Both the position numbers and the translations under genes were made by a program. The notes below the pieces were generated by a model. The model saw nothing but the letters and a program-made list of their open reading frames with translations, was not told the origin of the DNA and ran no database searches. 17,172 nucleotides of DNA from Armatimonadota bacterium (GTDB taxonomy: Bacteria > Armatimonadota > Hebobacteria > CAIYQO01): the NCBI GenBank assembly GCA_038248345.1, contig JBBRXO010000058.1, positions 1-17,172 of the forward strand. Direction: 5' to 3'. Shown here piece by piece: positions 8,106 through 17,172 of the stretch. Positions within the stretch are counted from its first letter, which is position 1; each line of letters starts with the position of its first letter.

Positions 8106-8473
8106 TCATTCGAACTGAATAACCTGGCTGGTGTTGTTGGACAGTATGCACGCTTCCATCAGTTTCATGACCCGCATGACTTCGGTATTCTGAATTTCCG
8201 GTTCGGCCTTGCCTGCAATGACCGCGATTACATTGCGGTAAAAATCGCGCACATCCGCTTTAACGCGAGGCAGGGGCTCTTCGGTGGCGGTGGTATCAAT
8301 GCGGGGCGCCATGGTCTTGGTTAAGCCAGCGCCTGCTACGATGGGTTTGGCGTCCATATCCTCGAATGACCGGAGTTTCATGATATTGCCGTTCAACGAC
8401 CAATCATCAATGAATGCTGATACCCCATGCCACCGAATCCCACGATGGCCACTCCTATCGATTTACTGTTCAT
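8106..8473 (-). pseudogene. Gfo/Idh/MocA oxidoreductase pseudogene with a large internal deletion and frame change
   Basis: ATG 8473 reads MNSKSIGVAIVGFGGMGYQHSLMIGR* (Rossmann GxGxxG). An overlapping different frame reads IDDWSLNGNIMK...AGLTKTMAPR...DFYRNV...VMRVMKLMEA, typical of the family C-terminus. Confidence 0.8.
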
Positions 8474-8538
8474 ATTTCTTCAACTCTGCCAAGTGTAGAA
8501 TTAGCTAATCTCCGGATCAGCCGTGTAGCATCACTAAC

Positions 8539-8568
8539 AGGATAGTAAGCTGCTACTAGTTGTGTCAA
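8539..8568 (-). promoter_or_regulatory. Possible sigma70 promoter for the oxidoreductase pseudogene
   Basis: Minus strand TTGACA (8568-8563), 18-nt spacer, TATCCT (8544-8539). Confidence 0.35.
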
Positions 8569-8605
8569 GCGGTCGGCAAGCGGGGGGAGGAGGGCGGTAA
8601 CACTC

Positions 8606-8704
8606 CGCGGCAGTTATCCGGAAATTCCGGATAACTGAGTCCAAAGGCAACTCTCCCTCGGCGAAGATGTTTTTGATGTGTTCACCAATTGTGCGCACAT
8701 CTTT
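8606..8704 (-). pseudogene. RhuM-family DNA-binding protein fragment
   Basis: KDVRTIGEHIKNIFAEGELPLDSVIRNFRITAA matches the RhuM-family N-terminal pattern (T-I-x-E-H-I-K-N-I-F-x-E-G-E-L...SVIRNFRITA). Similarity stops on both sides. Confidence 0.8.
8611..8637. repeat. Perfect inverted repeat (13-bp arms, 1-nt centre) inside the RhuM fragment
   Basis: CAGTTATCCGGAA-A-TTCCGGATAACTG. Confidence 0.95.
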
Positions 8705-8743
8705 ACCAGTTTCAATTATATCACAATGGTGGGTGACCCGATC
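8705..8743 (-). pseudogene. IS21-family IstB helper ATPase C-terminal fragment
   Basis: DRVTHHCDIIETG resembles the IstB motif DRLTHHCDIxETG; only 13 codons. Confidence 0.6.
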
Positions 8744-8896
8744 CGGCACCGCATAGCACTGAGACATTCACAAGGAAACGCGCCTTCTCGGTTTGCTGTG
8801 GGGCGAGTTCTGACAGAACAGTGAGCAAACAATAACATCCCGTCCCTGCCATCCCGTAATAGGATTTGGCAGTAACGTGGTGATCTTTATAATTTT

Positions 8897-8916
8897 TTGG
8901 TGCTACCTTGGTGCCA
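8897..8916. repeat. Direct repeats TTGGTGCTA / TTGGTGCCA, putative integrase arm-type sites
   Basis: Copies at 8897-8905 and 8908-8916, 11 bp apart; same motif recurs at 9027-9061. Confidence 0.6.
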
Positions 8917-8939
8917 GTAGCCTGAATTGAGGCTAAATA

Positions 8940-8984
8940 TGAATCCCCCTGACGGATTCGAACCGACGACCTGCGCATTACAAG
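8940..8984 (-). mobile_element. Attachment-site core: 3' half of tRNA-Thr(UGU), not an intact tRNA
   Basis: Minus strand CTTGTAA-TGCGC-AGGTC-GTCGG-TTCGAAT-CCGTC-AGGGGGA-T-TCA gives anticodon loop (UGU), variable loop, T-arm (one mismatch) and acceptor 3' strand. Upstream ACTGC cannot pair with TGCGC, and no D-arm or 5' acceptor strand is present. Confidence 0.85.
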
Positions 8985-9026
8985 GCAGTTGGGCGTCCGG
9001 CTGGTTTAGCCTCATATTTCGGCACT

Positions 9027-9061
9027 CTGGCACCATTTGGTGCCAGCCTTAGTGGCACCAA
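9027..9061. repeat. TGGCACCA/TGGTGCCA repeat cluster, putative integrase arm-type sites
   Basis: Inverted repeat CTGGCACCA-TT-TGGTGCCAG (9027-9046) plus TGGCACCAA (9053-9061). Confidence 0.65.
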
Positions 9062-9184: not shown

Positions 9185-9291
9185 GCAACTGCTACTCTCT
9201 TCGCTAACCACGGAAAAAGTGCACAATTGTACACACTTTGCGTATCTGCCCCTAATGCGGGCATCTCAGTGATGAGCAGTAGTTGCTCACA
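9185..9291 (-). ncRNA. Putative structured non-coding RNA
   Basis: Lies directly downstream of a strong promoter with no credible ORF. 9274-9286 pairs with 9185-9197 (11 Watson-Crick pairs, 1 G-U, 1 mismatch). Internal hairpins at 9247-9263 and 9216-9239. Confidence 0.4.
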
Positions 9292-9297
9292 AAGATA

Positions 9298-9326
9298 AAT
9301 ATACCACTTGATTGAATGGCTGTCAA
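9298..9326 (-). promoter_or_regulatory. Near-consensus sigma70 promoter with extended -10
   Basis: TTGACA (9326-9321), 17-nt spacer ending in TGG, TATATT (9303-9298). Confidence 0.75.
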
Positions 9327-9347: not shown

Positions 9348-10508
9348 TCACATCCCCCGCAGTCCCATACGAAAACCTGGTGGCATGACTGGGGCTTCAC
9401 CGTCCTTATATTCTGACGCTCCCGCAGCTGTGCTTGTCACCTCTTCGCCCAGTTTGTCGCGCAGGGGTGTACTTATGAAGAGCGGCATTGATGTTCGCAG
9501 CACGGTGGCGAGGAGCTTGCGGGGATCCTGGGTTAGTTGCTCCTGCTTGTCATAGGGGCCGATCAATATCCGGTCGAATGTTTTGCTGGGTATTTTGATG
9601 GGTTCCGTGGGGACGAGCCAGAGCGAGCAGGTGGTTTGTTCATTCGCTAAACAGTTGAGCAGGGAATCCATCTGCTGCTGCGTGGTCACCTTCATGAGCA
9701 GTTCGACGTTGTCGGGCACCGATCGCAGGGATAAGACGTGCTGATATTGCCGGGACCAGAGCAGGAAGGTGCAGCCGGAGATGGATGAAAGGAAGTCGTG
9801 GAGTTTAGCGATGAGCTCTGGCTGTGGCGTCAGTATAAGATCGCTCAGCGGATTGACGAGGATCATTGGGTTGTCCAGCGGTAGATTGACCCACTGCGGT
9901 CGGGCGTTGTTGTTGAGCAGTTCCATTGGGTTGAACTTCAGCACCTGGGCACCATCAGCCGCCTGCTGATATACATCGAGACGGTAGGAGATGTAGGGAA
10001 AGGTGTCATCCGCGGTGAGGAACTGGCGAAAGTCGAGCATCTGCGCGGTGCGCATGGCCGCGACTGCCGCCTTTACAGTATCGGCCGTCAGAGGAGTTTT
10101 GGTATCCTGCTGCAGCTTCACCGCGCCCTCCCAGGCGCGCAACTGCAATTCTTCATTATGTAGGATCAACAATTGCCGCACCTGCGCTTCATTCTGCGGC
10201 AAATAACTGACGGGCAGATTCTCCGCCAATTGATGGTCGCACAGTCGCTGGTAGACTTTACTCACCTCGATTTTGATGAATGCGGTGTGGCGCGGCAACG
10301 CCCACCTCTTCTGGCAGTAGTCGGCGAAGCAGGTGTAATTGAAGATGGTTCCGCGAAACAGCCCTTGCTCTTTGATGGCCGCCAGCGCAGTGCCGACGCT
10401 GACGAAGTCACCCATGCTTGACGCCAGTATATCTTCACATTGCTCCAGCGTTTTTACCGCTGCAACTTCCGGCTCCATTACATCCTCACTAATGCTCTGC
10501 TCGATCAT
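9348..10508 (-). CDS. Paralogue C: HTH-like N-terminal domain plus degenerate DUF5131/Gp37Gp68-like domain
   Basis: N-terminal: FVSVGTALAAIKEQGLF...FADYCQKRW...PQNEAQVRQL...LTA. C-terminal: ILVNPLSDL...FLLWSR...PDNV...VTTQ...FDRILIG. ATGA overlap with the upstream stop at 10505-10508. Confidence 0.8.
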   Translation of the reverse strand: MIEQSISEDVMEPEVAAVKTLEQCEDILASSMGDFVSVGTALAAIKEQGLFRGTIFNYTCFADYCQKRWALPRHTAFIKIEVSKVYQRLCDHQLAENLPVSYLPQNEAQVRQLLILHNEELQLRAWEGAVKLQQDTKTPLTADTVKAAVAAMRTAQMLDFRQFLTADDTFPYISYRLDVYQQAADGAQVLKFNPMELLNNNARPQWVNLPLDNPMILVNPLSDLILTPQPELIAKLHDFLSSISGCTFLLWSRQYQHVLSLRSVPDNVELLMKVTTQQQMDSLLNCLANEQTTCSLWLVPTEPIKIPSKTFDRILIGPYDKQEQLTQDPRKLLATVLRTSMPLFISTPLRDKLGEEVTSTAAGASEYKDGEAPVMPPGFRMGLRGM

Positions 10509-11761
10509 TTGCGATTAGCCTCACTTATCATGTTCATCATTCGTTTCTTTCTGGCTCCTGCGTCTGTTGTTGGCGACGATACCCGATCGTGGATATTGGC
10601 TGCCGCCTGCTCAGCAGATATCACATCCAAAATAACTTGCGACACCGCTGCTTTCGCTTTTTTGGGCAATACCGTCGCCTCCCGGGCGAAGGTATTAGCG
10701 GCAAAATTACTTAGATGCAGCGGTACATCGGTATCCAGCAGCGATGCTACCAACTCGCGCAGTGCGCCGATATCATCGTCAGTCCGATCACTTTGCCAGC
10801 CAGGAGCGCCGATCAACACACGCGATAACTCGAGCTGCTTCGGTATCGTCAATCGCTCTTCCGGCACCACCCAGAGGGCGCATTGTGGTCTCAATATGCT
10901 GGTGTGCTTCCGCCAGTAGCTGGCAAATTCATCCACCTCCTGTTGTGTGGATACCAGAATCGCCAACTCCACACCTCTTGGCCAGATACCCCAGTTGTCT
11001 ATGCAGCGGAAATTCTTCGTCCAGAAGAGGAAACGATAGCTGGGTGTGCGCTGGCATAATTCATGAAGTTCACCGATGAAGGTATGCAAATTGTCGTCAA
11101 CCAACAGATCGTAGTCGGGATTGACGAGCACCAGCGGCAACACCGTGCCTGACGCGGGTGCCGCGATGGTTTCGGTGAATTGCTTGGGATCCAGCAGCAA
11201 CTCCGGTTTCCGGAAACCGAGAGGCGGTAGGCATACGTCCAGGCGATATCTGATCATGGAGAAGGACGAGTCCGCCGTGAGAAGCTGCCGGAACGAGGTG
11301 CTCCCCACTTTCCGCAGCTGAAGTACGGCTTTCCGCACCTCCGCGGCGGGCATCTTGCCGGTGCGGAATATATTGTTGGTCCATACCGCTACCGCGTTTT
11401 GCCAGGCCAGCAATTGCTCCGCAGGCTGGTGCAGAGCGAGCAGTTCGCGCACCTGCGTTTCACTGGTTGGCGACTCCAGCGTAGAGAAATCTGCATTTTG
11501 CAGACAGGCATCGAGCACATTCTTATAGGCGCGGTAGACTTTGATCTTCAGGAATGCGGTGCGCCCGGCCAACCCCCATTTCTGCTGGCAATAGTCTTTG
11601 AAGCAGGGGAAGCCGCAACTCTTATGCAGCTTCCGCTCTTTGATCTCGCTTAACGCTGCGCCGATGCTGACGAAGTCAGCCATGCCGCTCTTCAGCATCG
11701 CTTCATACCGCTTCAGTTCATTCGCCCGTTCTGTCCTCGCTGCCATGCTCATAGTCGGCAT
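10505..11761 (-). CDS. Paralogue B: HTH-like N-terminal domain plus degenerate DUF5131/Gp37Gp68-like domain
   Basis: FVSIGAALSEIKERKL...FKDYCQQKW...PTSETQVREL; VLVNPDYDLL...FLFWTKN...WPRGV...VSTQ...RVLIG. AAGGTGG RBS. Confidence 0.8.
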   Translation of the reverse strand: MPTMSMAARTERANELKRYEAMLKSGMADFVSIGAALSEIKERKLHKSCGFPCFKDYCQQKWGLAGRTAFLKIKVYRAYKNVLDACLQNADFSTLESPTSETQVRELLALHQPAEQLLAWQNAVAVWTNNIFRTGKMPAAEVRKAVLQLRKVGSTSFRQLLTADSSFSMIRYRLDVCLPPLGFRKPELLLDPKQFTETIAAPASGTVLPLVLVNPDYDLLVDDNLHTFIGELHELCQRTPSYRFLFWTKNFRCIDNWGIWPRGVELAILVSTQQEVDEFASYWRKHTSILRPQCALWVVPEERLTIPKQLELSRVLIGAPGWQSDRTDDDIGALRELVASLLDTDVPLHLSNFAANTFAREATVLPKKAKAAVSQVILDVISAEQAAANIHDRVSSPTTDAGARKKRMMNMISEANRK

Positions 11762-11773
11762 CCTTATTCCACC

Positions 11774-12865
11774 TTATTTGTACAAGAAGGGCAACAGCTC
11801 CGTGGCCACGTGTATAGCTAACCGCGGAGTGTGGGCCAGCGACTCCGTCAGCAGTTGACGAAAGGCCGCGATATCGTCGGTAGCATCTTCCGCCACCCAA
11901 CCGGAAGTCCCCACCAGCACACGCTTCACTGGCAGGTCAGCCGGCAAAGTAATCGTTTCATCTGGCAGCAACCACAGCGTATCCAACGGTATCCCCCCGT
12001 CCAGCAGCCCCTGGATTTGCTCAAAGTCCTGCTGCTGGGTGATACGCAGTACCATACTGATATGGCTGGGCCATTGTTCAATATCGCAGAAGGGGGTCAG
12101 GTCTTTCGCCCAGAGCAGATAATGCCAGGCGGGTTCCATAGCACAGAATTCGACCAGCTTCAGCAACTCGTTCGAGGAGAAATTACTGCTGGGGATATCT
12201 TTCTCCAGATCGATGAAAACAAATGGAGCTACGGTGGAAGTGCCGTCCTTGACGGCCTTCTCCGGCGCTTGATAGAGATCTAAGCCCATGAACTGATAGG
12301 TGACCTCTTCGGTTTCTTCATCGGTAATCCCCTCAATCATCAGTTCCCAGCGCTTGCGGATGCCTTGAAAGAGATGATCATCCTGCAGCTCTCCCGGCCA
12401 GGGATTATCGTCTGCCGCGGCTTTCACGAGTTTAACCTGTTGCGCCACCAGCTTCCCGGTCAGCTCAACATTATCAGCCACATAAATTTCGACGGCCTGT
12501 TGCCAGGCCGCCTGCTGTTGCTCCGCCGTTAACCCGAAGAGTTTGCGTACCTGGTTCACGTTAGTCGGATTGAACTGTGCACAATTGTGCACAACTTGAA
12601 ATACCTCATGCGACTGAATCTGCAGGTAGGCGTCGCGCTTGCTGAGATTGAACTTATCCCGACAATAGGCGATGAACCCACCCTCGATACCACGCGCAAG
12701 TTCCTTATCTTTGATGGTTTTCAGTGCCTCCCCCACCTTGAACGGCTCATTGACGGCGGCCAGAATGATATCCTCCTGCACCGCCAACTCGCGCTGCTCA
12801 TCATCGGTTAATGTGGGTGCCAGGTACATATTATATTGAATAATCGCATCGATTAATTCGTCCAT
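11774..12865 (-). CDS. Paralogue A: HTH-like N-terminal domain plus degenerate DUF5131/Gp37Gp68-like domain
   Basis: FKVGEALKTIKDKEL...FIAYCRDKF...PTNVNQVRKL...LTG; VFIDLEKDI...YLLWAKD...WPSHI...ITQQ...RVLVG. ATG 12865 with GGAGA RBS 5 nt upstream preferred over TTG 12877. Confidence 0.8.
   Translation of the reverse strand: MDELIDAIIQYNMYLAPTLTDDEQRELAVQEDIILAAVNEPFKVGEALKTIKDKELARGIEGGFIAYCRDKFNLSKRDAYLQIQSHEVFQVVHNCAQFNPTNVNQVRKLFGLTAEQQQAAWQQAVEIYVADNVELTGKLVAQQVKLVKAAADDNPWPGELQDDHLFQGIRKRWELMIEGITDEETEEVTYQFMGLDLYQAPEKAVKDGTSTVAPFVFIDLEKDIPSSNFSSNELLKLVEFCAMEPAWHYLLWAKDLTPFCDIEQWPSHISMVLRITQQQDFEQIQGLLDGGIPLDTLWLLPDETITLPADLPVKRVLVGTSGWVAEDATDDIAAFRQLLTESLAHTPRLAIHVATELLPFLYK
12576..12593. 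repeat. Perfect 18-bp palindrome inside paralogue A
   Basis: TGTGCACAATTGTGCACA, encoding VHNCAQ on the minus strand. Confidence 0.95.
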
Positions 12866-12883
12866 TTGTTTCTCCAATATATT

Positions 12884-12918
12884 TCCCCGCCGTCATCCGG
12901 ATTGAATGACGGCGGGGA
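12884..12918. repeat. Strong intergenic hairpin (13-bp stem, 9-nt loop) without a U-tract
   Basis: TCCCCGCCGTCAT...ATGACGGCGGGGA. Confidence 0.85.
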
Positions 12919-12927
12919 GGTTGCATC

Positions 12928-14757
12928 TTACCTGGTACGCACGATGACATTACGACCTTCATGTTGTTCAATCTGCGCTCCCGAAAGCGAATGAGAACGG
13001 ATTTCTTCTTCGCTCATGCCGGATTCTGCAATGATATCCTGCATACGACGTGCGATTGGCTCTGCCTCTGCTGATCTTCCACTATTTTCCAATGCATCCA
13101 CGACATTTTTTAGTGCTAGCGCAACATAGGGATGGTGCGCTCCAAGGCTTTCCTCAAAATGAGATAACACACTGCGATAGTACGGCTCCGCCTCCTGGTA
13201 CTGTTTTATGATACACAGATAATGCCCTACGTTCTGCATCGCCTCTGTTGTATTAGCCGTGCCCTCGCCCCAGGTGTCCTCGATGATCTGTACGGCGCTA
13301 CGAAGCACTTGTAGCGCCTCCGAGTATTGTCCGGCGTGATTAAGCAATACGGATATTTGTTTGGCCATATACGCAACAAAGTCGCGGTCTTCCTGCGTTG
13401 GAGCCCATTGTGTAAATGCAGCAAGATAGGCTTCCCCCATCTGTTGCTCTTCTCCCAGCCAGGCCCAATAACCGCGTACTTGCGAATAATCATTGGAGCC
13501 GGAAGAAAAATAGAAGCGATTGATATCCAGCAAGCAGGCGCGCAGCCGCTCGCGGTGCCCGGCCTGCTGCAGGGTCCAAAGGAGTTCATCGCAGGTGTGA
13601 CCAGATATCGGTCTTTCTACGAAATAATCCGCCAAATCCAGATAGGCTGCCTGGCGTGCGTCGGCATCAGGAACGAATAGCTCTTGTACCGCCTGACGCA
13701 GGCTACTATGCTCAATACTGAGGAGGCTATCGCACAGCAATATGTGTGGATCCAGCACCGGATCGACTGCGTTCCAGCATTCACAGGGTAATGGCGTGCC
13801 ATCCTCACCCAGCAGCATGATTAATTCTGCTGGGAGTAAACCATGGTGAGTGGCCCACAGGTGAGTGAGTGTACGGCGGAAGAGGTCGTGTGGCGCCGAC
13901 TGCTCCTGCGGTACATCCTGCTGCCAGTTGTTAATGAGACGCAGGAAAAGGTCGAGTGGATTATCGGCCTTCAGGTAGTGGTCAACGATGGGGTGCAGGT
14001 CTTTGCTGTTGCCCAGCCGCCGTAGCTCCTCCAGCATAGTGCGCAGGAAGAGCGGATTCTTCGTGCCAGCGGCGGTGACTAGCTGAGTTCGTATGTCGGC
14101 ATCAAGAGTCAAGTCAGCCAACTCGCAAAATAGGCTGATCATGGCATCAGTTTCATCCTCGGTAGCGAGGGGTAGCTTGTATTCGGCCCATTTCCACTTG
14201 CGCACTGCGTGGAGATCCGGCCCCGGAGTCACGGACGCGATCAGCGTGACACGCTCATGCAAGATACTCTTGATCCAATCCAGATTGGGCTCCGCGTCGC
14301 CATCCCGCAGCCGATCGAGGCCGTCCAGTACGATCACAATCTGCCCCCGTTCAGCCGCCTGCCCCAGCAACACCGGCACCATCTCGCACATCTTCGTCAT
14401 ATCAGTAGATACCTCACCGCGGAGGTTAAAATGGGTTTTCAAATCCTCCGCCAGTCGACGCAGGATGCTATACGGTGAAGCGCTATCCGGCGTGGTGCCG
14501 ATGTAGTGCTGAAAAATAAAGCCGCAGGCATGAAAATCCGCCCACTTGCGTGCCCAGGCCGCCAGCAGCGTCGTCTTCCCGCACCCACTCACCCCACTAA
14601 CCACAATCCCACGACCGCGTTCGTCCCCATCCTGCGCCACCAGTGCATCCAGCGCGGCCAGATGCACAGGACGGTCAATACCAGCAATCAGCCTACGCTG
14701 CGCATAAGCCGTCTGTTCGATCCCTTCACTCGGATCGTCGCAATAATCAATTATCAT
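12928..14757 (-). CDS. NACHT-like (NPHP3/TEP1-type) STAND NTPase with C-terminal TPRs and no N-terminal effector domain
   Basis: Walker A GVSGCGKTTLLA, Walker B IVIVLDGLD, NPLFLRTMLEEL, kinesin-light-chain-type TPRs (YQEAEPYYRSVL...LGAHHPYVA). AAGGAAG RBS. Confidence 0.88.
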   Translation of the reverse strand: MIIDYCDDPSEGIEQTAYAQRRLIAGIDRPVHLAALDALVAQDGDERGRGIVVSGVSGCGKTTLLAAWARKWADFHACGFIFQHYIGTTPDSASPYSILRRLAEDLKTHFNLRGEVSTDMTKMCEMVPVLLGQAAERGQIVIVLDGLDRLRDGDAEPNLDWIKSILHERVTLIASVTPGPDLHAVRKWKWAEYKLPLATEDETDAMISLFCELADLTLDADIRTQLVTAAGTKNPLFLRTMLEELRRLGNSKDLHPIVDHYLKADNPLDLFLRLINNWQQDVPQEQSAPHDLFRRTLTHLWATHHGLLPAELIMLLGEDGTPLPCECWNAVDPVLDPHILLCDSLLSIEHSSLRQAVQELFVPDADARQAAYLDLADYFVERPISGHTCDELLWTLQQAGHRERLRACLLDINRFYFSSGSNDYSQVRGYWAWLGEEQQMGEAYLAAFTQWAPTQEDRDFVAYMAKQISVLLNHAGQYSEALQVLRSAVQIIEDTWGEGTANTTEAMQNVGHYLCIIKQYQEAEPYYRSVLSHFEESLGAHHPYVALALKNVVDALENSGRSAEAEPIARRMQDIIAESGMSEEEIRSHSLSGAQIEQHEGRNVIVRTR

Positions 14758-14977
14758 AATGTCTTCCTTTCAACGGGACAGATAGGCCATGCCTTGTCAC
14801 CGTTTAATAAGGATAATCGATGCGATAGGACGTAAGCTGGCCTAGTGATTGGGGGAGGAAGATTATTTTTGAAGTTTTTTTTGGGGGGCGCAGGACAACG
14901 CAGTTGACTCATATAAATGTCCTCGTGTGTCATAATAGGACATAGTCACAGAGCAACACCCCAATGAATAAATCGTG

Positions 14978-15006
14978 TTTACATCGTCGCCTATATGCTA
15001 TATCAT
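14978..15006 (+). promoter_or_regulatory. Putative sigma70 promoter for the TIR-STAND gene
   Basis: TTTACA (14978-14983), 17-nt spacer, TATCAT (15001-15006). Confidence 0.5.
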
Positions 15007-15055
15007 TGTCACTAATTACCCGTTTGCCCGAGAAACTACTTTAAGGAGCGACTCA

Positions 15056-17172
15056 ATGCCATACGATTTATTCATTTCTTACTCGCGCCGGGACGATCGG
15101 CAGGGGCGGATTACCGAACTCGTCGAGCGCATCAAGGCGGACTTCGCCTCCTTTGCTGGCAACAATGGCCGAGAACTTGTTCCTTTCTTCGACAAAAAAG
15201 AAATCCATGGGATGCAGGATTGGCGGCAGCGCATCCTGCATGGACTGCGCGAATCGCGGATGTTGCTTGTATGCCTTTCTCCGACGTATCTCCAGAGCGA
15301 TAATTGCGAGTGGGAATTCATCGAATACCTTAAATACGAGATCGGCCACCTGCACGGCTTCAACGGCGTCGCGCCGATTTATTATGTCCAGGTTCCCGAT
15401 TGGAACGACAAAGACTTTGACCAGAACTGCGCCGCATGGGTAGCCGAACTGCGCAAGCGCCAGTACATTGATCTGCGTCTGTGGCATGACCAGGGCGAGG
15501 CCGCATTGCGCGAACCCGCAGTGAAGGAGCGCATGGGCAAGCTAACCCGCCAGATATCCGAAACCATCAAACGCGGCGAGCGCGCCGAGAAGAGTCTCGG
15601 CAATGTGGAGGCGCACAACCCGCACTTCATTGGCCGTACCGCCAATCTGCGGATGCTGCGCGAAAACTTCGTCAAGCCCGGCCACATCGGCGTGGTCACC
15701 GCCGTCAACGGCGTGGGCGGGTTGGGCAAGACCGCGCTGGCTATCGAATACGCCCACGCTTTTGCCCACGAATACGGCGGCGGACGCTGGCAAGTGCGCT
15801 GTGCGGGCAAGGACGACCTGAGCCTGGCCCTCGCCGAACTCGCCACGCCTATCGGCTTCGAATTCACCGACGACGAGAAGAAAAACGCCGACCTCCAGTT
15901 CGAGCGTACCCGCCGCGAGTTGAAGAAACTCTCCGATGCCCACGAACCGCACCGCTGCCTGCTCCTCCTCGACAACGTTGATCAGCCCGACCTGCTCGAC
16001 CCAGCGCAGGTCGCGCGGCTCAACGGCGGCGACTGGCTGCACGTCCTCGCCACCACGCGATTGGGGGGAAACGAACTGCACGGCGCGCACCACGACCGCT
16101 CGTTTCTGCCTGTTGACGAACTGCCGCCGGACGACGCCCTCGCACTCATCGAGAGCTACCAGCCCGACGGCTTTTTCCGCAGCGAGGGGGAACACGACGC
16201 GGCACGCGAGATTGTGCGGTTACTCGGTTGTTTCACCCTTGCCGTAGAATCCGCCGCTGTATATCTCGGCCATTTTGCTTACGATGTCACCTGCGCCGCT
16301 TTTCTCGTACGGTTGAAACAGGAAGGGCTGGAAGGACTCGATACCGCCGTTACTGATGAAAGGCTGACCGTGTTGCACGGGGAGAAGCGCCTGTGCGCGA
16401 CGCTCCAGCCGACGCTGGATAGTCTTGGTGCAGCGGAGATACTGACGCTGGAATATGCCGCTCTACTACCACCCGACCAAGTGCCTTTGCTGTGGCTACG
16501 CGCGCTGGTGGCAGAGACGTTTTCAGAAATGGAACGCGACAGCGAGCCGGGCTATACCGATCCATGGGCAAATGTTTGGCGGTGTCTCATCAGCCTGCGC
16601 TTATTTCAGACAGCGGATATCGATCCCACCACCCTATTCCCCCGCCTGGTGCGTATGCACCGCCTCATCGGTGAGATAGTACGCAAACGCGATGGCGAAA
16701 GCGTAGCGCACGCAGACAAATTACTTGATCATGCCTGGGCACGTGCCATTTTCTTACGAGATAACTGGTTACCCTGGGAGAACCGCTGGGAGCTGGAACC
16801 ACTACTGATAATGTCGCAGGCAAAGCTCGATAGCGACAACCCCAGGATAGCAACTATGCTATCAAATGTGAGCAGTGTCCTCAATAATCTGGCACGCTAT
16901 CGGGAATCTGAGCCATTGATGCGCCGCGCGCTGCAGATTGATGAGGAGAGCTATGGGGAGAACCATCCCCATGTCGCCACAAAACTGAACAACCTGGCGG
17001 CGTTGCTGCAGGCCACTAACCGGCTGGCGGAGGCGGAGCCATTGATGCGCCGCGCGCTGCAGATTACTGAGGAGAGCTATGGGGAGAACCATCCTGATGT
17101 CGCCAAACACCTGAACAACCTGGCGCTGTTGCTGCAGGCCACTAACCGGCTGGCGGAGGCGGAGCCAATGAT
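15056..17172 (+). CDS. TIR - NB-ARC - TPR NLR-like protein, 3'-truncated by the window edge and absent from the ORF track
   Basis: TAAGGAG RBS and ATG 15056. TIR: MPYDLFISYSRRD...LSPTYLQSDNCEWE. Walker A GVGGLGKT (15710-15733), Walker B LLLLDNVD, ATTR, MHRL, then TPRs. All in one frame with no stop before 17172. Confidence 0.93.
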   Translation, partial: MPYDLFISYSRRDDRQGRITELVERIKADFASFAGNNGRELVPFFDKKEIHGMQDWRQRILHGLRESRMLLVCLSPTYLQSDNCEWEFIEYLKYEIGHLHGFNGVAPIYYVQVPDWNDKDFDQNCAAWVAELRKRQYIDLRLWHDQGEAALREPAVKERMGKLTRQISETIKRGERAEKSLGNVEAHNPHFIGRTANLRMLRENFVKPGHIGVVTAVNGVGGLGKTALAIEYAHAFAHEYGGGRWQVRCAGKDDLSLALAELATPIGFEFTDDEKKNADLQFERTRRELKKLSDAHEPHRCLLLLDNVDQPDLLDPAQVARLNGGDWLHVLATTRLGGNELHGAHHDRSFLPVDELPPDDALALIESYQPDGFFRSEGEHDAAREIVRLLGCFTLAVESAAVYLGHFAYDVTCAAFLVRLKQEGLEGLDTAVTDERLTVLHGEKRLCATLQPTLDSLGAAEILTLEYAALLPPDQVPLLWLRALVAETFSEMERDSEPGYTDPWANVWRCLISLRLFQTADIDPTTLFPRLVRMHRLIGEIVRKRDGESVAHADKLLDHAWARAIFLRDNWLPWENRWELEPLLIMSQAKLDSDNPRIATMLSNVSSVLNNLARYRESEPLMRRALQIDEESYGENHPHVATKLNNLAALLQATNRLAEAEPLMRRALQITEESYGENHPDVAKHLNNLALLLQATNRLAEAEPM
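16910..17172 (+). repeat. 126-bp tandem repeats encoding 42-aa TPR units
   Basis: Units start at 16910, 17036 and 17162; units 1 and 2 differ at 9 of 126 nt. Confidence 0.95.

Follow-up and report, generated by a model that had tools for sequence, protein, structure and literature searches.

A palindrome in the codons of a ParB-type DNA-binding protein from an integrated element of an Armatimonadota bacterium, probably read by the protein that the same gene encodes

Why a perfect palindrome lies within the codons of a putative DNA-binding protein, and whether each of three adjacent paralogues has one of its own, is the question raised by a 17,172-nt stretch of DNA from an Armatimonadota bacterium (GenBank assembly GCA_038248345.1, contig JBBRXO010000058.1; the whole stretch is referred to here as the window). 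An operon of three tandem paralogues, A, B and C, is present in it, all on the minus strand and with A first; B and C are 25-27% identical to A. A sequence-only reading had proposed that each gene keeps a different palindrome at the same codon position, in the linker behind its helix-turn-helix (HTH), and that selection acts there on DNA symmetry. The overall best explanation, with a probability of about 0.7, is that a ParB-type protein reads a palindrome in its own gene, a self-limiting roadblock being the most likely purpose. The genes and strings concerned are as follows.

11774-12877, minus strand: gene A, ParB-type DNA-binding-domain-like N-terminal domain and DUF5131-like barrel without the radical-SAM cysteine motif
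10505-11761, minus strand: gene B, a paralogue whose clade lacks the in-gene site; from its helix residues, the site of A is predicted
9348-10508, minus strand: gene C, paralogue in the site-less clade of B, whose stop it overlaps
12576-12593, no strand: palindrome of A, perfect, 18 bp, inside gene A, where it codes for VHNCAQ of the loop that the recognition helix leads into; protein A is predicted to bind here
11490-11504, no strand: string of B, 6-bp arms and 3-nt spacer, odd-centred, at chance level; not judged a family site
10223-10236, no strand: string of C, with 5 of 7 pairs and its centre at a codon boundary (as in 0/131 family sites), at chance level

The three strings are present at these positions, each in the linker between the HTH and a P-x-x-x-x-QVR motif. 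Chance rates were obtained from 20,000 random 60-nt windows of the genome, and the centre offsets were worked out from the coordinates. The string of A, claimed to be perfect, is a perfect 18-mer, and a 9+9 palindrome occurs in 0.03% of the random windows. Those of B and C, claimed as kept palindromes, are at chance level, with equal or better motifs in 5.5% (B) and 16.6% (C). Nor is the codon position shared: measured from the conserved Tyr codon, the centre lies 83 nt downstream in A, 96.5 nt in B and 90 nt in C, and the remaining distance to QVR is 31, 41.5 and 45 nt, respectively. As even-centred 18-mers the B and C strings have only 4-5 of 9 pairs; gene B contains four better-scoring palindrome rows, at two other places, and the string of C is outside the top 12 rows of gene C.

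The family was defined on the N-terminal domain, with 10,470 clusters at 50% identity (E ≤ 0.001). Viral contigs supplied loci (the best 80 of 231), as did genomes (the best 80 of 183), metagenomes (2) and related genomes (12 stretches), and the patterns used to find them were derived from the Y-C motif and made no use of the linker; the 179 domains, less 16 near-duplicates and one unanchored row, gave 162 non-redundant relatives. A site was called where the 48-nt window after the HTH contained an 18-mer in which 8 or all 9 pairs were complementary. Such palindromes were found just after the HTH in 131/162 relatives and in 5/798 control windows, and perfect ones in 87/162 and 0/798, respectively. 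The two fixed registers alone give 90/162, and the offsets of the family sites range from 73 to 109 nt. When homologues were scored for symmetry against synonymous recoding, a check that the sequence-only reading had proposed, 65 of 86 genes did better at p ≤ 0.05; within the 131 loci, which were selected on pairing, 736 of 748 synonymously free positions were paired, against 251 expected. The sites occur in two reading phases (105 and 26), none centred on a codon boundary, and the 131 code for 113 different peptides, and therefore the constraint is on the DNA. Selection on DNA symmetry, as had been supposed, acts family-wide, and this explains the odd linker peptides (VRNCAQ, LSPIGD, VSTIVD) as its by-products.

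Symmetry of this kind would also be kept if the palindrome were a hairpin of RNA or single-stranded DNA (a pause, processing or recombination signal) and the covariation described below were hitch-hiking. The segment of A folds at -11.8 kcal/mol (z -2.8), the single mismatch of a second copy at 9218 is a U-G pair on the operon strand with five T next on the minus strand, and the innermost pair is the least conserved in the family (109/131). Pairing, however, reaches 123-131 of 131 at distances 2-9 from the centre (43-52 at distances 10-13), including distances 2 and 3, in or closing the loop of a hairpin, with 129 and 131; the pairs are Watson-Crick and not wobble, with G-T at 0-4 per position; and hitch-hiking cannot yield one-residue-to-one-base rules with null cross controls. 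A hairpin is thus a most improbable explanation.

The residues that covary with the palindrome are encoded in gene A at two places.

12623-12640, minus strand: recognition-helix codons, for K, R, Y and L in A, which covary with bases 2, 4, 3 and 6 of the half-site
12554-12556, minus strand: codon preceding QVR, for Asn in A; the residue aligns to ParB G201 and covaries with half-site base 8

With the linker columns left out of the ranking, the four pairs of highest mutual information were column 58/base 4, column 62/base 6, column 61/base 3 and column 87/base 8 (0.87-1.04 bits; the next had 0.59). Arg at column 58 goes with G (36/37); at column 62, Arg goes with C (56/60) and Glu with G (10/10); Tyr, Phe or His at column 61 go with T (68/69); and at column 87, Arg goes with C (35/35) and Ser, Ala or Gly with A (80/80). 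The pairings fit known contact chemistry, in which Arg is found opposite G, Gln with A, Glu with C and Tyr with T. Leave-one-out prediction of the base from one residue was right in 109/128, 103/129, 110/130 and 124/129 cases, the majority base in 71, 54, 57 and 89. Independent-pair tests were carried out on a tree of 131 flanking sequences, built without columns 55-90, on which each of the four main traits changes 28-38 times; none of the four main rules is ever reversed (median p 0.008-0.03), and the 12 cross controls are null, all with median p of at least 0.375.

A code trained on 59 viral loci placed the own palindrome of the 72 other loci first of 64 in 23 and among the top 3 in 40 (median rank 2). 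Among the 18-mers of the genome that passed a two-base pre-filter, the residue matrix of A or of B put 12576 first and 9218 second. A family-shaped palindrome on contig C135 is second for the matrix of C and drops out for those of A and B, and the genome ranking partly reflects family shape. As judged from these covariations, the proteins very probably bind the palindrome in their own gene. The proposal that a gene carries its own binding site is in this way supported for the family and is not supported for B and C, the residues of B predicting the site of A.

The same reading had allowed for a swappable specificity cassette, and an HTH-palindrome segment exchanged as a block between elements by recombination would suit the 28-38 changes per trait, the coexistence of the two reading phases and the position of all determinants within about 90 bp. 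It is weakened by the null cross controls, which show the four code positions to be mutually independent, as expected for stepwise change, and by the 71 specificity combinations among 131 sites; the tree is moreover poorly resolved, which inflates the change counts. Block exchange is therefore considered unlikely, and reading by the encoded protein remains preferred. Reader and site lie within about 90 bp and are therefore inherited together; specificity would shift one position at a time, by a residue change and a symmetric base-pair change, the latter being tolerated by the loop peptide. Template switching in near-palindromes is a possible source of symmetric base changes.

If B and C each carried and read a different palindrome of their own, their strings would be expected where they are, in the right linker, and the family offsets do not exclude them by position alone; besides, the family shape is seen in the left nine bases of the B string, whose hairpin has a better fold than 194/200 shuffles (z -2.3, for a region chosen after the fact). 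The low pairing and chance rates given above speak against this, as do the odd centre of B and the codon-boundary phase of C, shared by 0/131 family sites. Both strings score strongly negative under residue-derived matrices, B ranking 1,989 or worse and C 857, under their own matrices, among about 17,000 18-mers of the window, and the nearest relatives of B and C have different peptides at the string positions. Own palindromes for B and C are thus very unlikely. In a quick tree of 22 proteins, B and C fall in a clade of 9 (support 100), separate from the A-type. The site is present in 0/4 genes of this clade for which DNA was available, versus 6/6 A-type genes; 9/9 peptides of the clade could encode a family-shaped site with at best 7 of 9 pairs, versus 8-9 for all 11 A-type peptides scored (one A-type protein was unscored). 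Only A has a real site, and the view that each of the three paralogues has its own is set aside; the best reading is that B and C are older duplicates that lost the site, while A keeps it and heads the operon. In two related genomes the A-type site was found once, inside the gene, and two other one-mismatch matches lie in unrelated genes. In related genomes, two A-type orthologues are split by stops or a frameshift, the palindrome still being perfect.

The N-terminal domain of A was modelled with a pLDDT (predicted local distance difference test) of 96.8. In the fold search it matched Raf1 (Z 10.3), Spo0J (PDB 1vz0; Z 9.1, root-mean-square deviation 3.0, 109 aligned) and ParB-parS (PDB 6s6h; Z 8.7), with alignments of 109-118 residues, and further SopB (Z 7.1), KorB (Z 6.2) and VirB (Z 5.2) (PDB 3mkw, 1r71 and 3vwb). 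A profile of the 162 rows, compared with one of 23 chromosomal ParBs (23 of 30 loci fitted the extraction pattern), placed E-x-Q-x-R on E-G-H-A-R (59% probability, E 9e-5), so that column 87 aligns to the G of GHAR, i.e. ParB G201/Noc R201. A ParB CTPase domain was not detected: A, B and C gave no ParB Pfam match at E ≤ 1, 124 relatives gave none at E ≤ 1e-4, and the model of A begins with the helices of the DNA-binding domain. With moderate confidence, the model indicates that the N-terminal ~140 residues form a ParB/KorB-type DNA-binding domain without the CTPase domain. Residues 20-160 of the model have the N-terminal domain of Raf1 as best structural match, a hint that Raf1 may share ancestry with ParB-type DNA-binding domains.

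Jalal et al. (2020; PMC7383237) report that ParB G201 goes with A6, Noc R201 reads C6, R204 is conserved and R173 reads the outer G. The rule at position 201 (Gly with A, Arg with C), as given there, is matched by column 87 and base 8 of the family. In gene A, column 87 lies 28 codons after column 57, as 201 lies after 173; an Arg that begins the recognition helix appears to accompany the outer G, as in ParB/Noc, and a conserved Arg follows three residues after that of column 87. At the equivalent of 173, Arg or Lys goes with G in 104/109, but with p 0.125 in independent pairs, and Gln goes with T in 4/5 and not with A; the Gln-with-A rule of ParB/Noc is not reproduced in the family. The fold of the DNA-binding domain appears to be common to the family, ParB/Spo0J-parS and Noc-NBS (Noc-binding site; PDB 1vz0 and 6s6h). 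Unlike ParB, the family lacks the CTPase domain, has no ParA partner as a rule and usually has a single copy of its site, which is fixed in the loop right after the HTH, and the domain occurs fused to methylases or DUF5131. Whereas ParB/Noc have two specificities and parS is a conserved 16-bp sequence, the 131 family loci hold the 71 combinations and 90 different half-sites.

No named family was found for A, B and C in Pfam, PHROGs or NCBIfam, the best match being the unnamed phrog_15077 (E 2e-4); a word-based protein search returned the protein itself only, and a PDB sequence search nothing relevant. The C-terminal 144 columns align to DUF5131/Gp37-Gp68 (PF07505; 97% probability), with which the partial barrel is homologous; PF07505 is detected at E ≤ 0.1 in 6/19 subfamily members, and the window proteins themselves miss the Pfam model. 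The barrel is of the radical-SAM type, with spore photoproduct lyase as nearest enzyme fold (Z 8.3). The cysteine triad, present in an intact control member, is missing in 19/19 subfamily proteins, and judging from this the barrel of this subfamily is probably no longer a radical-SAM enzyme. In a fusion scan of 124 full-length members out of 159, a Pfam domain was found in 42 (Dam 27, DUF5131 5, DUF4326 4, MT-A70 3 and N6_N4 methylase 3) and no recognised fusion in 82. The neighbours of family loci are mostly prophage or island genes, with an integrase at 5/32 loci; a ParA-like neighbour is present at 1/32 genome loci (two genes on each side).

For the purpose of the site, the region downstream of gene C is of interest.

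9218-9235, no strand: second copy of the palindrome of A, non-coding, 16-bp core, one mismatch, 113 nt past the stop of C; unnoticed by the sequence-only reading
9298-9326, minus strand: sigma-70-like promoter candidate, near-consensus (11/12) with extended -10, pointing through the 9218 site to the element end

With up to 3 mismatches of 18 allowed, the 2.98-Mb genome contains no match other than the 12576 and 9218 sites. A decayed gene fragment as origin of the 9218 copy was rejected, the flanks being unrelated to gene A. Read as an intrinsic terminator, the copy has a 6-bp stem and five T (z -1.8), and 5 such sites were found versus 3.6 by chance; the terminator-like reading, though weak, may also apply. 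The copy lies about 60-75 nt downstream of the promoter-like sequence, a candidate given by consensus match only (5 found versus 3.3 by chance at the looser threshold of the scan).

We infer a dimer, which would read the 18-bp palindrome where its own gene encodes the free loop behind the recognition helix, the helix residues reading half-site bases 2, 3, 4 and 6 and the residue before Q-x-R reading base 8, like G201/R201 in ParB/Noc. Protein A, and perhaps B too, would also bind the 9218 copy, downstream of the outward-facing promoter at the element end. A self-limiting roadblock to transcription of the gene and of its fused or downstream cargo, private between co-resident elements, is favoured on the grounds that the transcribed unit usually contains the one site there is, and that extra copies, where they exist, lie upstream (276-1535 nt) or, in this window, downstream of the promoter-like site. 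This purpose is the weakest step of the mechanism and, if binding is granted, has even odds. The main rival, possible though somewhat unlikely, also assumes self-binding and takes the site for a cis anchor, which would hold the protein, together with the domain fused to it (adenine methylase, MT-A70 or DUF5131), on the element DNA for marking, positioning or partition. It would agree with the ParB-type fold, the fusions, mostly to Dam, the position of the site about 290 nt inside the gene and far from a promoter, and the second copy at the element end. It agrees less well with the 82/124 members without recognised fusion, the rarity of ParA-like neighbours and the absence of a ParA ATPase among the window genes beside the operon, the lack of a CTPase domain and hence of ParB-style spreading, and a barrel in the window without the radical-SAM cysteines.

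Several results weigh against the favoured explanation. Good sites are missing in 31/162 relatives, which nevertheless keep ordinary helices. Only 4/131 loci have another copy that differs at no more than 1 of 14 positions, with no excess at 2-3 mismatches, and no extra cognate site was found within 2 mismatches of the 16-bp core in any of 65 other loci; as second copies are rare, operators at promoters are not a general feature, and the purpose as a roadblock is a guess. Only 4-9 independent pairs lie on supported branches, and four secondary rules did not reach p < 0.05. The training rows for the genome ranking include close relatives of A, and the nearly uninformative, mostly background matrix of C also puts 12576 first. 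The half-site is one base longer than that of parS (site of 18 bp versus 16 bp). In the fold search Raf1, a Rubisco chaperone, stands above ParB, and Z below about 13 is not decisive for helical domains; a Foldseek search with the model of A gave no match at E ≤ 0.001, and the ParB profile match has a probability of only 59%, with a local alignment that misregisters the HTH.

The setting of the operon is that of an integrated element, whose end is marked by two further features.

8927-8984, minus strand: attachment-site scar, duplicate of the 3' part of tRNA-Thr(TGT), 54/58 identical; the intact gene is on contig C19
9028-9058, no strand: short TGGCACCA repeats, also present beside other tRNA-Thr-linked element ends of the genome

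The tRNA-Thr duplicate, as an attachment-site scar, marks the end of the element that carries the A-B-C operon, and the TGGCACCA repeats are read as element-end (arm-like) repeats. Short repeats lie on both sides of the duplicate within 8800-9060. Element ends with similar short repeats are found on contigs C19 and C28, and stretch 8960-9030 is also matched on C63, which suggests several related elements at tRNA-Thr. The 9028 palindrome, third under the weak matrix of C, was set aside as a site of B or C, the same repeats flanking other element ends. To the left of the scar (8106-8780) there are gene fragments, including an oxidoreductase C-terminal piece, and two short pieces which, by eye, we take to be IstB and RhuM remnants, with other copies in the genome. 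On the other side of the operon, a NACHT-TPR gene (12928-14757, minus strand) and a TIR-NB-ARC-TPR gene (14975-17170, plus strand) are divergent, and their products are predicted to be defence-like STAND proteins. A strong G+C-rich inverted repeat, a terminator or REP-like (repetitive extragenic palindrome) element, separates the start of gene A from the stop of the NACHT-TPR gene (12885-12917). A search of the genome beyond A, B and C found no further family member. The host has its own parS-type palindrome and its own ParB on contig C15. The palindrome of C135 (4797-4814), a perfect one of 18 bp directly upstream of a toxin-antitoxin-chaperone-like operon, is probably the operator of that antitoxin and unrelated to the A-B-C family. 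No joints were seen in related-strain contigs from two DNA sequencing runs.

Elsewhere in the family, the loci L136 and L145 (about 9950-10760), from two cyanobacterial genera, have the family gene on its own, flanked by transaldolase and glucose-6-phosphate dehydrogenase; upstream in L145 there is a decayed linker duplicate, with the palindrome in it still perfect. At L180:9933 the cognate palindrome occurs a second time, in frame, within a 5' extension of the same gene.

Protein-binding sites within coding sequence are known from phage lambda O with ori-lambda, for O in its own gene, and from lac O2 inside lacZ. The lambda O sites are iteron arrays with a replication role, and lac O2 is an auxiliary operator in another gene; neither is known to have a per-member residue-base code. 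An in-gene site has a precedent in the parS that lies within spo0J of B. subtilis. KorB, SopB and VirB have their sites outside their own HTH codons and possess CTPase domains. They are of the same fold class as the family, mobile-element proteins binding palindromes, and KorB is reported to silence genes (PMC11790492). Already known from ParB are thus the fold, two contacts and the principle that a site may lie within the gene of its binder. New, as far as the literature searched goes, are the fixed in-loop site, the dozens of specificities and the readable residue-base code; no description of a fixed in-loop site with a readable code was found there, in a search that covered only a minor part of the subscription papers.

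Cognate protein-DNA pairs are rarely readable from sequence, and here thousands would be, since the site is in the gene. With odds slightly better than even, the 10,470 clusters are a natural library of self-addressed DNA-binding proteins with a nearly modular four-residue code, reprogrammed stepwise with one arm copied onto the other. If so, specificity change without non-functional intermediates becomes testable on a natural series, and the two-state ParB/Noc switch is extended to dozens of states. The family would then offer many orthogonal, CTP-independent ParB-like protein-site pairs, a predictable, ParB-derived and programmable recognition scaffold, and would represent a new way for elements to keep their regulation private.

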